From contig JBGFSC010000006.1 in NCBI GenBank assembly GCA_041694815.1, positions 24,937 through 88,936 of the forward strand: 64,000 bases of DNA, given 5' to 3'. Within the stretch, counting starts at the first letter, position 1, and each line of letters begins with the position of its first letter. The position numbers were made by a program, and so were the translations under genes. Positions 54,741-63,764 of this stretch are shown here, piece after piece. This DNA comes from Elusimicrobiota bacterium. Its GTDB lineage: Bacteria; Elusimicrobiota; Elusimicrobia; UBA1565; JACRDR01. The notes beneath the pieces were generated by a model, which saw nothing but the letters and a program-made list of their open reading frames with translations, ran no database searches and had not been told where the DNA came from.

Positions 54741-56293
54741 CGGCCCCCCTTCTGTTGAGTCTTTTGAGCGGGTGTTGTCGTCTGCGACGGCAGGCTTTGC
54801 GCCTGCGCCGCGGCCGGTCCTGGGTCATTGGGGACATATTCCTCGACCATCTCGAGGAATCCCTCCAATTTTTCCATGACCGGGCCGCTTCCCAAGAGGG
54901 CCTCGATTTTTTCGACCGTCATCTCGGGAGAATAAAGGTAGACGGTATCCTTGATCGTGCGGGCCATCTCCGAGCGTAGGCTGCTTCGATCGAACTTGCC
55001 GCGCTGGCGCCTCTGCAGCACGCGCTCGATGACATGCGGGTAGAGCACCGCGTCGCTGATCTGGGCCGCCGCCTCTTCGGCGTCGAGCCCTTGCGGCGCC
55101 TGGGACTCGGCGGCCTTGATGAATTCCTGGGAGAAGTCCAGGTCGGCCTGATGGATCTTCTGGGCCTCCTGATGCGCGTCCTTCTCGTTCATCTGTTGCT
55201 GCTGCATGAGCTCCATGAAGCTCTGGATATGGACTTCGAGCTTGCGGACATAGACCCTTCCGGCCCAGGGGGCCGCGGCCGACTTGATGAAGCCCCATTC
55301 CTCTTGGCCCTGGGCGCCTCCTTTCGAGTAGTACCGGCTCCAGGCCTTGAAGGACCTAAGCAGGCCGGCTTGTACCCTCGCGCTGCCCGATTGGTGCAGG
55401 CCGCGCAAAAGCGAGACATCCGGCGAGGGCTTCATGAGCTCTCGACGGCCGGCGGCGATGGCGGCCGACTCGGCCTCGGCGCTCAGAGACGAAGCGGTCG
55501 CCTTCAGCGGAGCGAACGAGAACACGAATACGTCCCGCGTCCCCGCGATAGCAGGGTCTTTTCTCGCGATAGGAAGTACCCCGTGCCAAAGCGCCTTGTT
55601 GTCGAAGACGATGAGCTCTCCGGACACAAGCGTCCTCTCCAGCACCATCGCGGATCCCGACGCGTCCTTGGCGAGCTGGGTCTGCCCGCCGACGATATTC
55701 TTCCTCGCGACCACCCAGATGGCGATCGCATCCGTGAAGTCGTCCTGATGCAGGCCGTCCGGAGTGACCTCGCCATCGGCCACCCGGATCTGGTGCAAGC
55801 CGATCTGCACTCCTTGCTTGGGAGCGCCGCCCGGGAGGCGGGCGATGAGCCCGAGCACGAGCTTCTGAAAATCGGGGTCTTGGAGCACGGTCGGTTCGAT
55901 GCCGGCGTATCGAGCCTCGGTGGAGCCTTCCTCGTAGGAGGCTCCGGGGTAGCTGCGTATCTTGGCGCCGGAGGGCGAGGAGGGGTCCGGGGTCACCTCG
56001 ATCCTGGCGGCCGCCCGGTAGCGTTTTCCGGTGGCGCCCGCTCGATAGTGGGGGTCGGCCGGCAGGCGCTCGAAGCTTGGCTCGACGCCGGAGCGAAGTT
56101 TGGCGGCACGGGCGCCCAGAATGTCGGAGAGTTTCGAGAGTTGGATCTTGCCCGAAGAGGGACGGCGTGCCTTTATTTTTTCGCCGGCATCGGAACTCGC
56201 TACAAAGGCGTGATCGCCGATCCCCCCGAAATCCTCGCAGCGGCCCGAAGCGTTGAGGCTTGCGATAATGAAGATAAGCGCGAAACTTTTCAT
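54737..56293 (-). CDS. 2OG-Fe(II) dioxygenase-domain protein with signal-like peptide and unknown helical C-terminus
   Basis: HQIRV, TPDGLHQD (HxD), WHGV, TRDV; N-terminus MKSFALIFIIASLNASG. Confidence 0.75.
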   Translation of the reverse strand: MKSFALIFIIASLNASGRCEDFGGIGDHAFVASSDAGEKIKARRPSSGKIQLSKLSDILGARAAKLRSGVEPSFERLPADPHYRAGATGKRYRAAARIEVTPDPSSPSGAKIRSYPGASYEEGSTEARYAGIEPTVLQDPDFQKLVLGLIARLPGGAPKQGVQIGLHQIRVADGEVTPDGLHQDDFTDAIAIWVVARKNIVGGQTQLAKDASGSAMVLERTLVSGELIVFDNKALWHGVLPIARKDPAIAGTRDVFVFSFAPLKATASSLSAEAESAAIAAGRRELMKPSPDVSLLRGLHQSGSARVQAGLLRSFKAWSRYYSKGGAQGQEEWGFIKSAAAPWAGRVYVRKLEVHIQSFMELMQQQQMNEKDAHQEAQKIHQADLDFSQEFIKAAESQAPQGLDAEEAAAQISDAVLYPHVIERVLQRRQRGKFDRSSLRSEMARTIKDTVYLYSPEMTVEKIEALLGSGPVMEKLEGFLEMVEEYVPNDPGPAAAQAQSLPSQTTTPAQKTQQKGGR

Positions 56294-57393
56294 TTATTAG
56301 CTCCTGAATTATTTAATTCAACTTCGAGCACTTGTATCAGGGTCAAAGCCTTATGCGAATGATCGGAGGCAGACCCGAGCACCTTTAGTATGTCTTCCTT
56401 CTTTGGAGATCGCTCGTTCTCTAAAACCCACTTTAGACTTCGTTCCTGTTCGGATAATTCTTCAACTATCTTCCGAATCCCATCGACCTGCATTGCTTTT
56501 TTTGGATCGCAATTCCCTGGACGTCCGTCATTGAGAAGACCGGACATTCTCCAGGCCGTTTCGTAAAGCAAATGGGCGTCGTTGAGGAACACGCGGACTT
56601 CGACCGTCGACTCACCTCTTTGTATCGCAGCCTCGAGCATTGTCTGGGCTTTATTGAATCGCGCATGCGTTTCCTTCGCCTTATCTACGGCGCTGCGCAA
56701 CATTAGGCAGGTGGCGGGGGCGGGGAATGCAACGGTCGCCGGATCCTGTCCGTTTTTGACGGCCTGGGCCTGCGCCTTGATCGCAGCGATCTTCACGGCG
56801 GCCGCGTCGGCATAGAAGGAGGCACGCGCTACCGCGCCCATATCAGGGTCAAATTGGTTGCGATGTGCGATCAGCATATGATCCGTCCCTTCCTCAATGT
56901 CATTGAGTGTAGCCGTTAATTCCTTAATAAAGAGGGCTTTTTGAGCGGGATCGCAGTTTCCGGTCAGCAAATCGGCTCGAGCGAGAGATTCGCGGGCCGC
57001 AATCGCCTTAGACTTGGCGTCGGCGGAGGCATTATAAGAACCTCCATCCCAATAAGTCCCTTTGGGATTTGTTCTGGCAAGGTCGACCTTCTGCAAGGCT
57101 TCTTGGGTTTTATTGAAGGCTTGATCGGCTAATTGGCAGCCATCCGAGCTGCTCGCGAAGGATTCTACGCTCGGTATCCCACTGCAGGCGCTGCCGAGAA
57201 CGCAGAGGGCCAGCGCGGCTCCGGCCAATTTCCGGCGCAGCGCGCCGCCCTCCCTTTTCTTGGCGGAAAGCGCCGCAATCGTATCGTCGACTCGCTGAGG
57301 GGTATCTGGGCCGAACTCCTGGGCGGCGACGGTTCCGAGACCCAGGCTCAACGCTAACAATGCCGCAGCGAACTTCTTGCCGTTATTTGCCAT
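56290..57393 (-). CDS. Dual-signal helical family, long form
   Basis: ...GTVAA-QEFG...LRRKLAGAALALCVLGSAC...DGCQLADQAF, GNCDPAQKALF, PGNCD. Confidence 0.85.
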   Translation of the reverse strand: MANNGKKFAAALLALSLGLGTVAAQEFGPDTPQRVDDTIAALSAKKREGGALRRKLAGAALALCVLGSACSGIPSVESFASSSDGCQLADQAFNKTQEALQKVDLARTNPKGTYWDGGSYNASADAKSKAIAARESLARADLLTGNCDPAQKALFIKELTATLNDIEEGTDHMLIAHRNQFDPDMGAVARASFYADAAAVKIAAIKAQAQAVKNGQDPATVAFPAPATCLMLRSAVDKAKETHARFNKAQTMLEAAIQRGESTVEVRVFLNDAHLLYETAWRMSGLLNDGRPGNCDPKKAMQVDGIRKIVEELSEQERSLKWVLENERSPKKEDILKVLGSASDHSHKALTLIQVLEVELNNSGANK

Positions 57394-58411
57394 CGATCTC
57401 ATTTTGAAGCTCGACCCGCAATACCTCCAGTTGGATGAGCGTTTCCCGCGCCAGCCGCGAAGCTTCCGCGACATGCCCTAGGGCGTCTGGAGATTCCTTC
57501 GAAGTCACCGCCTTTCGAAGAGCCTTCTCCTGTTGATCGAGATTGGAAAGCACTGAATCCAGCTCCTTTTCCTGTAGGCGCTTTTGTTGTCCACAATTTC
57601 CCTGCCCCAACTCTTTGAGTTGGGTTTGGGCCCCTTGAGCCTCCTCGAAGAGAAGGCGGGCCTTGTTGAGCGCAATACGCGCGTTCACCGTGGATTCTCC
57701 GTTTTTGACGGCGAGTTCGGCCAATTGCAGGGCTTTCGTGAGCTGTTCCTGAACCCCCTTGGCCTTGCCGATGACGTCGCCGATCACGATGCAGGTGCCT
57801 GAAGGCGGGAAGGATGCCGAGGGCGTGCCGGTCTTGGCCTGATCTTTGAGCGCCTCGATCTTGGCCGCGGCCGCATCGACGAACAAGGTGGCCTTTCTGA
57901 CTCCGTCCCAGGAACGCGAATTCACCAGGGCTTGGGATTGCTCCACGTCGCTTAAGGTCACCTCGAGCTGGGTAATAAAGAGTTGCTTATGGGATTGGTC
58001 GCATGCGCCGGTTTGCTCTTCGGCCCGTTTTAGGGCCTCGCGGGCCTGGTTCGATTTGGCCTGGGAGTCCTTGATGGCGTCCCAGCCCTCACGCCCACCG
58101 GTATTCGCCACCTTAAGCCTGCCCTCGGCAACTTTCTGCACTGACTCCGCGGTATTGGCAAAGGCGCGATCCACCCATTGGCAGCCGTTGATGTTCGTTG
58201 TATTCTCTGCGCAGGCGCTGGCCAGCACTCCGCAGGCCAGGAGGGCTCCGGCAAGCTTGCGCCCGAGGCCGCCGTTTCGTTTTTTTGCGGAGAGCGCCGC
58301 GGCGGTCTCGCCCACTCGTTCTCGAGTATCCTCACCGAAGTCTTGCGCGTGGGTCGTCGCGAAGGGAATACCGAGGCTTAAGACCAGCGCCATCGCGATA
58401 AAGCGCTTCAT
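57383..58411 (-). CDS. Dual-signal helical family, long form
   Basis: ...TTHA-QDFG...LGRKLAGALLACGVLASAC...NGCQWVDRAF. Confidence 0.85.
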   Translation of the reverse strand: MKRFIAMALVLSLGIPFATTHAQDFGEDTRERVGETAAALSAKKRNGGLGRKLAGALLACGVLASACAENTTNINGCQWVDRAFANTAESVQKVAEGRLKVANTGGREGWDAIKDSQAKSNQAREALKRAEEQTGACDQSHKQLFITQLEVTLSDVEQSQALVNSRSWDGVRKATLFVDAAAAKIEALKDQAKTGTPSASFPPSGTCIVIGDVIGKAKGVQEQLTKALQLAELAVKNGESTVNARIALNKARLLFEEAQGAQTQLKELGQGNCGQQKRLQEKELDSVLSNLDQQEKALRKAVTSKESPDALGHVAEASRLARETLIQLEVLRVELQNEIDGK

Positions 58412-63142: not shown

Positions 63143-63143
63143 G

Positions 63144-63764
63144 CTACTTGGCGCCATCCTTCTGCGCCAGTTCCTTGAGAGCCGAGATCTTGGCATTGGC
63201 CTCTTCCGAGTGGGTGCGAGCGCTCCTGAGCCGGCTGGATACTTCATCCTGGCTTGACGAAGACAACGCCGTCTTCGTGGCGGCTATTTCTTGCTCGACG
63301 TCCGCGATTATTTTTCCCACCGTCCTCGAGTAAAGAGCGTATTGATTCTGGTCGCAGTATATCTCCAAGTGATACCGGCCAGGCCGCCTGTCAATCGCAA
63401 GTTTGGCGTCCTCGAGTACTATTTCGGCCCCCGCCAATGCTGCCTGCGCCGCCGCGCGCGAGCCCTCGCTCGCTTTTTGGACGCTGTCGTCAGCGCGGCG
63501 AACCGCTTCGGTCGTCTTATCGAAGGCTCGCTGCGTCCAGACGCAAGCATCGCGGTCCGGATTGCCAGCATGAATGCCACAGCCGACGGCGCTCAATGCG
63601 AGCAGCGGCACCCCGACCAGGGTCACTAGCCGCTGGCGCGCGCTCATCTTCTTTCGGGTTTGCGCCGCAGCGGCGCCAAGCTGTGCCTGGGTATTTCCTA
63701 AATCCTGCGCCGAGGCAGTGAAGGTCCCGCAGGCAAGAATAGCCGCTAAAAGCCATCCGTTCAT
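63144..63764 (-). CDS. Dual-signal helical family, short form
   Basis: ...TASA-QDLG...ARQRLVTLVGVPLLALSAVGC...DACVWTQRAF. Confidence 0.85.
   Translation of the reverse strand: MNGWLLAAILACGTFTASAQDLGNTQAQLGAAAAQTRKKMSARQRLVTLVGVPLLALSAVGCGIHAGNPDRDACVWTQRAFDKTTEAVRRADDSVQKASEGSRAAAQAALAGAEIVLEDAKLAIDRRPGRYHLEIYCDQNQYALYSRTVGKIIADVEQEIAATKTALSSSSQDEVSSRLRSARTHSEEANAKISALKELAQKDGAK

Follow-up and report, generated by a model that had tools for sequence, protein, structure and literature searches.

Two export-type signals in series in an array of eight paralogous proteins and in nine distant paralogs of one Elusimicrobiota genome

How does a bacterium handle a protein that carries two export-type signals in series? 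The question is raised by eight paralogous open reading frames (ORFs), g1 to g8, on the minus strand in the final 7.7 kb of a 64-kb stretch of DNA from an Elusimicrobiota bacterium (GCA_041694815.1, contig JBGFSC010000006.1), hereafter the window. Their products range from 203 to 367 aa, five being long (342-367 aa) and three short (203-217 aa), with 18 to 48% identity to g3, taken as the reference copy. Each of the eight shows the same order: a cleavable-type signal (signal 1), the short motif [QD][DE][FL][GDS], which is the core of what we call the tag, a linker, a second hydrophobic run with a Cys (signal 2, or the second segment), a Gly/Ser/Pro-rich stretch and helices. Bacterial export theory assumes one N-terminal signal per protein. 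Our favoured answer, with a probability of about 0.4, is that both signals are processed in turn in the producing cell, which would give an extracytoplasmic four-helix-bundle protein starting at the Cys.

Signal 1 starts with one or two Lys/Arg (none in g8) and has a hydrophobic run of 14 to 21 residues, with small residues at -3 and -1 in all eight proteins. The linker has 25 to 35 residues; net charge is -3 to +1 over the first 18 and +4 to +6 over the last 15, and 4 to 6 Lys/Arg are clustered immediately before the second hydrophobic stretch. The second uncharged run has 16 to 24 residues; its Cys is preceded by two small residues, lies 12 to 19 residues behind the last basic one (counted by hand on the sequences) and is invariant in the array (8/8). 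It is found at residue 61 to 70, and at residue 107 to 122 in six of the distant paralogs described below, thus beyond the extreme N-terminus. In ordinary lipoproteins, the Cys sits within roughly the first 15 to 35 residues.

In g1, signal 1 covers 57322-57393 (aa 1-24, TVAA/QEFG, small residues at -1 and -3, the slash marking the putative cut), and the tag and linker (aa 25-55, acidic then basic, ending in LRRK) with the second segment to Cys70 (GSAC) cover 57184-57321. The corresponding pairs, all on the minus strand, are 58346-58411 (aa 1-22, THA/QDFG) and 58211-58345 (to Cys67, ASAC) in g2; 59412-59471 (aa 1-20, TGA/QDFD) and 59274-59411 (to Cys66, GSAC) in g3; 60486-60545 (aa 1-20, GYG/QDFS) and 60348-60485 (to Cys66, LSAC) in g4; 61097-61153 (aa 1-19, ALA/DDLG) and 60971-61096 (to Cys61, AVAC) in g5; 62022-62081 (aa 1-20, AHS/QDFG) and 61893-62021 (to Cys63, AVAC) in g6; 63074-63142 (aa 1-23, SIA/QDFG) and 62933-63073 (to Cys70, GSAC) in g7; and 63708-63764 (aa 1-19, ASA/QDLG) and 63579-63707 (to Cys62, AVGC) in g8. 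The initial annotation of this DNA, made from the sequence alone, had listed a basic patch in every copy (LRRKL in g1, LGRKL in g2, LRRKF in g3, LRQKL in g4, GRRKL in g5, ARRRW in g6, FRRKL in g7, ARQRL in g8) and a lipobox-like ending (LGSAC three times, LASAC, VLSAC, LAVAC, SAVAC and SAVGC). All eight ORFs and every listed motif are present, and Met is absent between signal 1 and the basic patch in six of the eight, as it said, g4 and g8 having one. It had also placed an Ala-rich helix of about 20 aa after the first motif; the motif is there, whereas the helix is predicted only at a pLDDT (predicted local distance difference test) of 29 to 42.

Is signal 1 translated? Its start codon lies within one base of the upstream stop, or overlaps it, in six of the eight genes, and g5 and g8 have GGAGG-like sites. 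With the most likely start codons and in the direction of transcription, the genes are g8 (63144-63764, 206 aa, short, the first of the visible operon, the contig ending at 64000), g7 (62078-63142, 354 aa, long, ATG 1 nt past the g8 stop), g6 (61428-62081, 217 aa, short, ATG directly after the g7 TAA), g5 (60542-61153, 203 aa, short, one bundle, GGAGG 8 nt upstream of the ATG), g4 (59472-60545, 357 aa, long, ATGA overlap with the g5 stop codon), g3 (58413-59471, 352 aa, long, the copy chosen for the structure model, ATG directly after the g4 TAA), g2 (57383-58411, 342 aa, long, ATG 1 nt past the g3 stop, with GGAGGA upstream) and g1 (56290-57393, 367 aa, long, two four-helix bundles, ATG at 57393 or 57402 overlapping the g2 end). 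In the linkers of the five long paralogs, codon differences at positions 1, 2 and 3 are 0.31, 0.26 and 0.62, and 76 of 133 identical residues are encoded by different codons. Protein identity among these five is 52% in the linker, 70% in the basic patch and second segment, and 37-38% in the mature domain. Judging from the substitutions, the linker is evolving as coding sequence under purifying selection. We also looked for an internal translation start, the objection that the initial annotation had raised against its own proposal: the eight genes share no in-frame ATG, GTG or TTG ahead of the basic patch, and the upstream part evolves as coding sequence. Start context, substitution pattern and linker conservation together indicate that signal 1 is translated and under selection, and for this reason the public gene call for g5, which begins at an internal Met and gives 150 aa, is probably wrong.

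The same layout recurs in nine more distant paralogs at four other loci of the genome, detected by an architecture screen followed by a profile of the second segment and first bundle. A design retained in all eight array copies at such low identity, and again in these nine, exceeds what chance would give. They form a tandem trio on contig C52 (k1 to k3, the K trio), a tandem pair on C15, a single gene on C17 and a tandem trio on C24. A tblastn search of the eight array proteins against their own genome gave no match outside the array, and the profile search was needed to reveal the other loci. In a profile-profile comparison, the K trio aligns with the array family from the second segment through both first-bundle Cys (94% probability, E 9.5e-8). 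Each of the nine begins with a signal peptide that has a small-x-small site, continues with a conserved acidic motif and a low-complexity linker (69 to 84 residues, basic at its end), and then shows the second segment; strong Shine-Dalgarno-like sequences (GGGAGG, AAGGAG, GAGGAG) stand upstream of three of their signal-1 starts. In the K trio, 14 to 15 of the 19 residues of the motif after signal 1 are identical with 7 to 9 synonymous differences, a pattern by which this motif is under real purifying selection. The linkers of the C24 trio are identical in 75 of 76 residues with 3 synonymous changes, and their DNA is almost identical as well, which indicates gene conversion. The paralogs are not independent observations. 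At the C24 locus (C24:32001-43000; 4310-8946, minus strand), the tag, in identical or similar form, also occurs in the products of two upstream genes, where a linker, a basic patch and membrane helices come after it.

How far does the second segment resemble a lipoprotein signal? The strict lipobox pattern was defined as [LVI][ASTVI][GAS]C. It fits five of the six sites in the K, C15 and C17 paralogs (LAAC, LGAC, LSAC, LAAC, LTGC, LTGC), a single array site, that of g4, and none of the three C24 proteins, where the Cys is absent; a relaxed PROSITE-like pattern fits 14 of the 17 family members. Of the lipobox-like endings reported in the initial annotation, the Cys is invariant (14/17 in the family), and the strict pattern applies to one of the eight in the array. 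The uncharged run has 23 to 28 residues in the C24 trio versus 16 to 26 in the 14 Cys-bearing members, and in several distant paralogs a charged residue follows within 2 to 5 residues past the Cys. Loss of the Cys together with a longer run is what would be expected when a cleaved lipoprotein signal becomes a permanent anchor with its N-terminus inside and C-terminus outside (N-in/C-out). We regard this covariation as the best internal evidence for the orientation of the segment, and it argues that the Cys-bearing form is a cleaved signal. A plain transmembrane anchor in homologs, the other outcome foreseen in the initial annotation, is seen in the three-gene C24 subfamily only. In Pfam and NCBIfam, none of the 17 members reaches the cut-off of any model; for the internal segment, the strongest of the weak, sub-threshold NCBIfam matches falls on a lipoprotein N-terminus in 4 of 9 proteins (Lpp/OprI, TrbK, LptM, lipo-invert).

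A route through the twin-arginine translocation (Tat) system was tried and rejected. The twin Arg is present in five of the eight array copies, as first reported, and in just 8 of the 17 family members, so that it is not conserved and the Tat idea is weak; TatC is encoded nonetheless. The two export-type signals in series, the lack of an internal start and the conserved Cys are supported.

Charges around the second segment point the same way in the whole family. In all 17 proteins, the final 15 positions of the linker carry a net +2 to +6, and the residues behind the segment -3 to +1. When the C-flank charge is subtracted from that of the N-flank, the members caught by the screen (16 of the 17) score +2 to +8, with 11 of the 16 at +4 or more. 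This makes them outliers within the genome, where 244 further ORFs that have two hydrophobic segments near the N-terminus, taken from crude ORF calls, average +0.14 and 20 of them reach +4. On these charges, the second segment looks like a cleaved signal in N-in/C-out orientation. Signal 1 likewise looks like one, because of its short hydrophobic run with Lys/Arg ahead, the small-x-small site and the acidic early mature region. Next to the C15 pair, the genome encodes a normal type I membrane protein with FliG domains, and there the Arg/Lys come after the membrane helix.

This creates a conflict. No hydrophobic stretch returns the chain between the two signals, the only preceding segment being signal 1 itself, 25 to 84 residues upstream, so both signals cannot span one membrane simultaneously. 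Four outcomes are logically possible: signal 1 is used alone; each molecule uses one or the other; both are used sequentially via a transient intermediate; or two membranes are involved. Use of signal 2 alone is unlikely because of the tag evidence presented below. An arrangement like that of Lep, with the N-terminus outside, was also considered and rejected, since 1 to 3 Lys/Arg are found in the N-tails of 16 of the 17 proteins and the first run has just 14 residues in g3, g4, c24b and c24c. Our topology statements are drawn from sequence rules. The enzymes that such signals call for are encoded in the genome: Lgt (PF01790, E 6.5e-50) and LspA (PF01252, E 4.3e-36), each at one locus, together with three type I signal peptidases and a single SecY.

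On which side of the membrane would the mature domain lie? We modelled g3 with AlphaFold2, using an alignment of the eight paralogs (mean pLDDT 76.5 overall). Residues 76-350 are confident and form eight helices arranged as two four-helix bundles; the short paralogs have one bundle, as seen in their sequences. The residues after the Cys are Gly/Ser/Pro-rich and tether-like, with low model confidence up to residue 75. Behind the terminal Cys of the segment, the number of Cys is even in all 17 family members, two per bundle. Those of g3 (80, 133, 217 and 283) coincide with the starts of helices 1, 3, 5 and 7 or come just ahead of them; such ends lie together in an up-down bundle. In the model, this suggests one disulfide per bundle, pointing to an extracytoplasmic location, and the genome encodes two DsbA-like genes (PF13462). 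The mature domain thus looks extracytoplasmic. Foldseek with the g3 model gave no match at E <= 0.001. In a wide structure search, the best natural matches to the second bundle of g3 were the periplasmic sensors 6db1, 6s18 and 1lih in PDB. These 4HB_MCP-type matches (Z 13.2-14.9, root-mean-square deviation 2.3-4.2, 126-137 residues aligned, 10-15% identity) indicate a resemblance in fold only: unrelated helical bundles score about 13-14 according to the tool's own note, versus 14.9 for the best match, and the array proteins have no Pfam or NCBIfam match.

The QDFG-like motif behind signal 1 is the core of a tag found throughout the genome. A motif ending in F-[GDET]-x, in acidic context and within about 24 residues after the hydrophobic core, occurs in 83 of 609 signal-like N-termini, compared to 338 of 7523 control windows inside the same proteins (4.5%), in a crude screen that includes false positives and relies on crude ORF calls for its genome-wide counts. 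The tagged set comprises small membrane proteins with Gly-rich hairpins, the dioxygenase encoded in the array's operon (CEDFGG) and exported WD40 propellers. Ten tagged ORFs were tested, giving seven WD40 proteins, one GH63-like hydrolase and two without match. Present on about 80 candidate exported proteins, the tag has the look of an undescribed mark for sorting or docking. Because some of the proteins that it heads are exported and plainly soluble, it is almost certain that signal 1 works as a Sec signal and that the tag is meant for the outside of the cytoplasm.

The seven exported WD40 beta-propellers (~400 aa; contigs C20, C19, C27, C52 and C54) have the tag, as ..LFDG.., directly after the signal peptide, and some adjoin tagged small membrane proteins. 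In many tag carriers, a signal peptide and a linker of 65 to 105 aa lead into a Gly-rich hairpin in the membrane whose flanks are basic and whose loop is neutral; examples within the window are 8277-8888 (minus strand) and 10731-11342 (plus strand). In two genomes of the same class, EE.SVA..RLFEG.Q is found inside, and not at the start of, proteins of 517 to 557 aa, and a genome of the same order has LDGLFEGS ahead of the membrane part of a protein judged by eye to be a CPBP-like protease.

We favour processing of both signals in turn in one cell, one of the two routes put forward in the initial annotation, because every conserved feature then has a use and no unknown partner organism has to be assumed. 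In a first step, type I signal peptidase would cut the Sec signal 1 just before the Q/D, exposing a short acidic tag. The Lys/Arg cluster would then set the second stretch as an N-in/C-out signal; either the translocation begun by signal 1 would be stopped and restarted, or an exported pro-form would be held at the membrane surface. Finally, the mature domain would be freed by cleavage just ahead of the invariant Cys, carried out by LspA at the canonical lipoboxes and by LspA or type I peptidase at the A-x-A/C sites of the array. The mature domain would start at the Cys, probably anchored by lipid, and the middle piece of 40 to 50 residues bearing the tag would be released or discarded. Since the two cuts free the mature domain, the topological conflict would be only transient. 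At the translocon of the endoplasmic reticulum, two hydrophilic stretches of a single chain are able to cross the membrane simultaneously, with a second hydrophobic segment starting translocation during an arrest of the first (Kida et al. 2007, PMC2373506). This case is a precedent for the unusual intermediate. The basic cluster of the array proteins lies at residues 17-32 behind the signal-1 cut. Andersson and von Heijne are said to have found in 1991 that positive charges within a zone of roughly 30 residues block Sec export in Escherichia coli, and the cluster falls inside that zone.

Several points weigh against this scheme. No standard topology fits both signals in one membrane, the restart step is a conjecture for bacteria, and we know of no bacterial precedent for stalling and restarting. 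In classical work on start and stop transfer, a second segment behind a working signal either stops transfer or passes through. In the C24 trio the second segment would not be cut, making the conflict permanent there. Seven of the eight array copies lack the strict lipobox, having G or A at -3, and the endings GSAC, ASAC, AVAC and AVGC fit an A-x-A/C site of signal peptidase I equally well. The hydrophobicity values come from a single scale. DsbB and VKOR were searched for and not found in this genome, which is 97.8% complete, and this weakens the disulfide argument; many exported proteins of the genome carry paired Cys all the same. Lastly, no homolog was found outside the host genome in the collections searched, and conservation could be judged within this one genome only.

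That last point rests on several searches. The initial annotation had proposed to look for the same architecture in related genomes, and no confirmed relative turned up in 300 other genomes of the phylum, a sample that includes no other genome of the host's family: profile A2 found no homolog, its weak matches being a plain signal-peptide protein and a plain lipoprotein, and profile A4 gave only module-like matches, all with E > 1e-4 (9 read). A profile of the eight paralogs against 1.84 billion representatives returned 8 matches, all verified as the window's own. A word-index search with g3 matched two proteins, both from its own genome, and one with the K trio its own proteins only. Pattern scans of metagenomes for the K and C24 trios gave 295 and 342 pattern matches, respectively, with none confirmed.

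Signal 1 alone could export the whole chain, with the second segment left uncut. The basic patch and a short Ala/Gly-rich helix would then bind a membrane from the periplasmic side, at the inner face of the outer membrane or the outer face of the inner membrane, and the Cys could serve, for example, in an intermolecular disulfide. Signal 1 is canonical and emerges first, and the second segments of the array are weakly hydrophobic. With basic residues before and acidic ones after, they have the flanking arrangement that is least likely to stop transfer. The scheme would also make them resemble the glycine-zipper or Gly-rich hairpins of other tagged proteins, with their basic flanks and neutral loop, and the total number of Cys is odd once the terminal Cys of the segment is counted. 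We nevertheless consider it unlikely: the canonical lipobox in five of the six distant paralogs and the pairing of Cys loss with a longer segment are left unexplained, a charge 2 to 5 residues past the Cys in several distant paralogs leaves no return limb, and the segments of the K, C15, C17 and C24 proteins are hydrophobic enough to stop in the inner membrane.

Type I membrane proteins are the default expectation for a cleavable signal followed by a hydrophobic segment. Signal 1 would be cleaved, the tag and linker would be periplasmic, the second segment would be a stop-transfer anchor, and the bundles would be cytoplasmic, where they might meet the AAA+ ATPase encoded in the operon. This ATPase needs to be cytoplasmic and resembles the array proteins in its order of signal, loop and hydrophobic segment, and uncharged runs of 16 to 28 residues could cross a membrane. 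The positive charges, however, are on the wrong side in all 17 proteins, whereas the genome's clear type I protein, with the FliG domains, has its Arg/Lys after the helix. Moreover, the hydrophobic stretch up to the Cys has just 12 to 19 residues by hand count, and the lipobox, the Cys pairs and the acidic, Gly/Ser-rich juxtamembrane stretch would have no explanation, which makes this topology rather improbable.

The single scheme that employs every conserved feature with no topological conflict places the two signals at different membranes. With signal 1 the protein would leave the producer, its tag and flexible linker would pass it on to another cell or an unrecognised compartment, and there the Sec/Lgt/LspA machinery would insert and process the remainder, a complete precursor, from the cytoplasmic side. 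This is the recipient-cell idea of the initial annotation. The part behind the linker does look like a self-sufficient precursor (lipoprotein signals, signal anchors, basic-flanked hairpins), and a 2-oxoglutarate (2OG)/Fe dioxygenase, an enzyme in need of cytoplasmic cofactors, also bears signal 1 and the tag. Analogies can be seen in the bipartite presequences of thylakoid-lumen and complex-plastid proteins and in the disordered N-terminal translocation domains of colicins; Ho and colleagues reportedly described in 2017 that type VI secretion system effectors are re-sorted in target cells. Set against this, no delivery machine was identified beside the arrays, nothing in the analysis points to predation or to life inside another cell, and we know of no predatory or parasitic member of the phylum. 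To bring a hydrophobic precursor across a periplasm into a second cytoplasm is demanding, and the tag is also found on WD40 propellers and small membrane proteins that are possibly parts of the bacterium's own envelope. We hold it doubtful that a bipartite presequence serves two successive membranes; if it did, the genome's entire tagged set would be the cargo of an undescribed protein-delivery route.

In a further alternative, each molecule would use only one of its signals, and every gene would yield a tagged periplasmic pro-form and an untagged form anchored by its Cys. Both signals look functional and are conserved, a competition between them is physically simple, and the n-region charge of signal 2 (+4 to +6) exceeds that of signal 1 (0 to +2). 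But signal 1, being the first to emerge, should win in most cases, no hint of alternative starts under regulation was seen, and the arrangement would be wasteful across 17 genes; its prospects appear poor, much like those of the two preceding schemes.

The weakest alternative, an annotation artefact with the true start just before the basic patch, plain lipoproteins as products and signal 1 as an untranslated leader, is very improbable and largely refuted: the public calls of g5 and of k3 on contig C52 do start at internal Met codons, and g1 has GGGAGGG 8 nt before a CTG at the basic patch, but no ATG, GTG or TTG is kept in frame there, the Met codons of g5 and k3 fall within the hydrophobic stretch past the basic residues, and the upstream part is of coding type in its substitutions, better conserved than the mature domain and provided with starts that are coupled to upstream stops or have Shine-Dalgarno-like sites.

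Which known systems come close? Classical lipoprotein precursors share the basic n-region, an h-region of 12 to 19 residues, the small residues, the invariant Cys and a Gly/Ser-rich tether, but here this signal stands behind a complete cleavable one and Leu/Val/Ile is found at -3 in just one of the eight array proteins. The putative C-terminal anchoring domain lipo-invert (NF058595, invert_tail) likewise has a basic loop, a short hydrophobic stretch and a lipobox Cys inside an already exported protein, whereas the array module is N-terminal and has no return helix. To our knowledge, internal lipoprotein signals have been modelled until now only downstream of a helix that leads the chain back into the cytoplasm. 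Its hidden Markov model matches none of the eight array proteins at E <= 0.1, and the best score in the family is 15.3 bits (k3) against a cut-off of 37. By these searches, the family is without relatives in the collections covered, with lipo-invert, whose defining features it lacks, as the nearest curated concept.

Serial signals processed by two peptidases at two membranes are known from the bipartite presequences of organelles (thylakoid lumen, complex plastids, mitochondrial intermembrane space). These also share a low-complexity spacer, and the second thylakoid signal is of bacterial type; they act, however, at two eukaryotic membranes, and no second compartment is known here. The ESPR of autotransporters (PF13018) is a long N-terminal targeting region composed of two charged and hydrophobic units, but the extension there does not by itself form a cleavable signal that has an A-x-A site followed by an acidic early mature region. 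PF13018 was not among the Pfam matches of the eight array proteins at E <= 0.1.

Dual Sec-Tat membrane proteins also have two targeting steps in series, the later one on an internal segment of low hydrophobicity; they have membrane helices before the Tat segment, an essential twin arginine and C-terminal positive charges (Tooke et al. 2017, PMC5449189). The array proteins differ in having a single cleavable signal ahead, RR in 8 of the 17 members and an acidic C-flank. In the full-text literature searched, no description was found of a natural protein with a type I signal, a linker and a type II signal in series. One 'dual signal peptide' appears to be a single peptide readable by either peptidase (PMC13616975), and another concerns a haemolysin of Vibrio parahaemolyticus that is secreted by both type II and type III systems (PMC12494544).

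If both signals are indeed used, the arrangement would be categorically new. At least 17 proteins keep two signal-like units in series under selection with no return helix, so that some non-standard step must occur, be it stalling and restarting at the translocon, a second cut on the periplasmic side, two products per gene or use of signal 2 at another membrane. The link between the array and a genome-wide tag would further suggest an undescribed sorting step in a poorly sampled lineage.

The array belongs to one operon with two more genes, in which neighbouring gene ends touch or overlap throughout. Downstream of g1, with an ATGA overlap, lies a PF10014 2OG-Fe dioxygenase gene (54737-56293, minus strand, 518 aa, E 2.4e-28), whose product has a signal peptide and the tag core CEDFGG and lacks the second hydrophobic segment. 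This family is normally cytoplasmic; with its signal, the operon dioxygenase would be an exported enzyme, and a word-index search with it matched itself alone. The last gene (50019-54740, minus strand) encodes a double AAA+ protein of 1573 aa, ClpB/ClpV-like by its domain matches and translation. Its N-terminus is signal-like (..AIA/QG) and followed by a basic loop of ~100 aa and a hydrophobic segment, with more hydrophobic segments towards the C-terminus; it does not carry the tag. Both AAA+ modules retain Walker A and B motifs, judging the translation by eye. For the C-terminal part of this protein, 99 pattern matches in species genomes gave no confirmed relative; the C-terminal extension has ~740 aa.

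On contig C15 (C15:8001-17000; 3570-9000, plus strand), the paralog pair is followed in the same direction by a 580-aa ORF whose product has a signal-like N-terminus, ~170 aa in the periplasm, a single membrane helix, and FliG middle and C-terminal domains, and then by one MotA/ExbB and two MotB/OmpA-like genes. From its domains, this set may be a non-flagellar stator-type machine.

The promoter and terminator scan of the array region gave site counts no better than chance. The only sizeable gap of the array, ~270 bases between g6 and g5 (61154-61427), contains a weak promoter-like site on the minus strand (61342-61315). The G+C content of the array is 57.7%, compared to 62.9% for the genome, which has 2.77 Mb in 54 contigs. 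The window lies at a contig end, with just 182 bases left upstream of the longest g8 ORF, so the array may be truncated and go on beyond the assembly.

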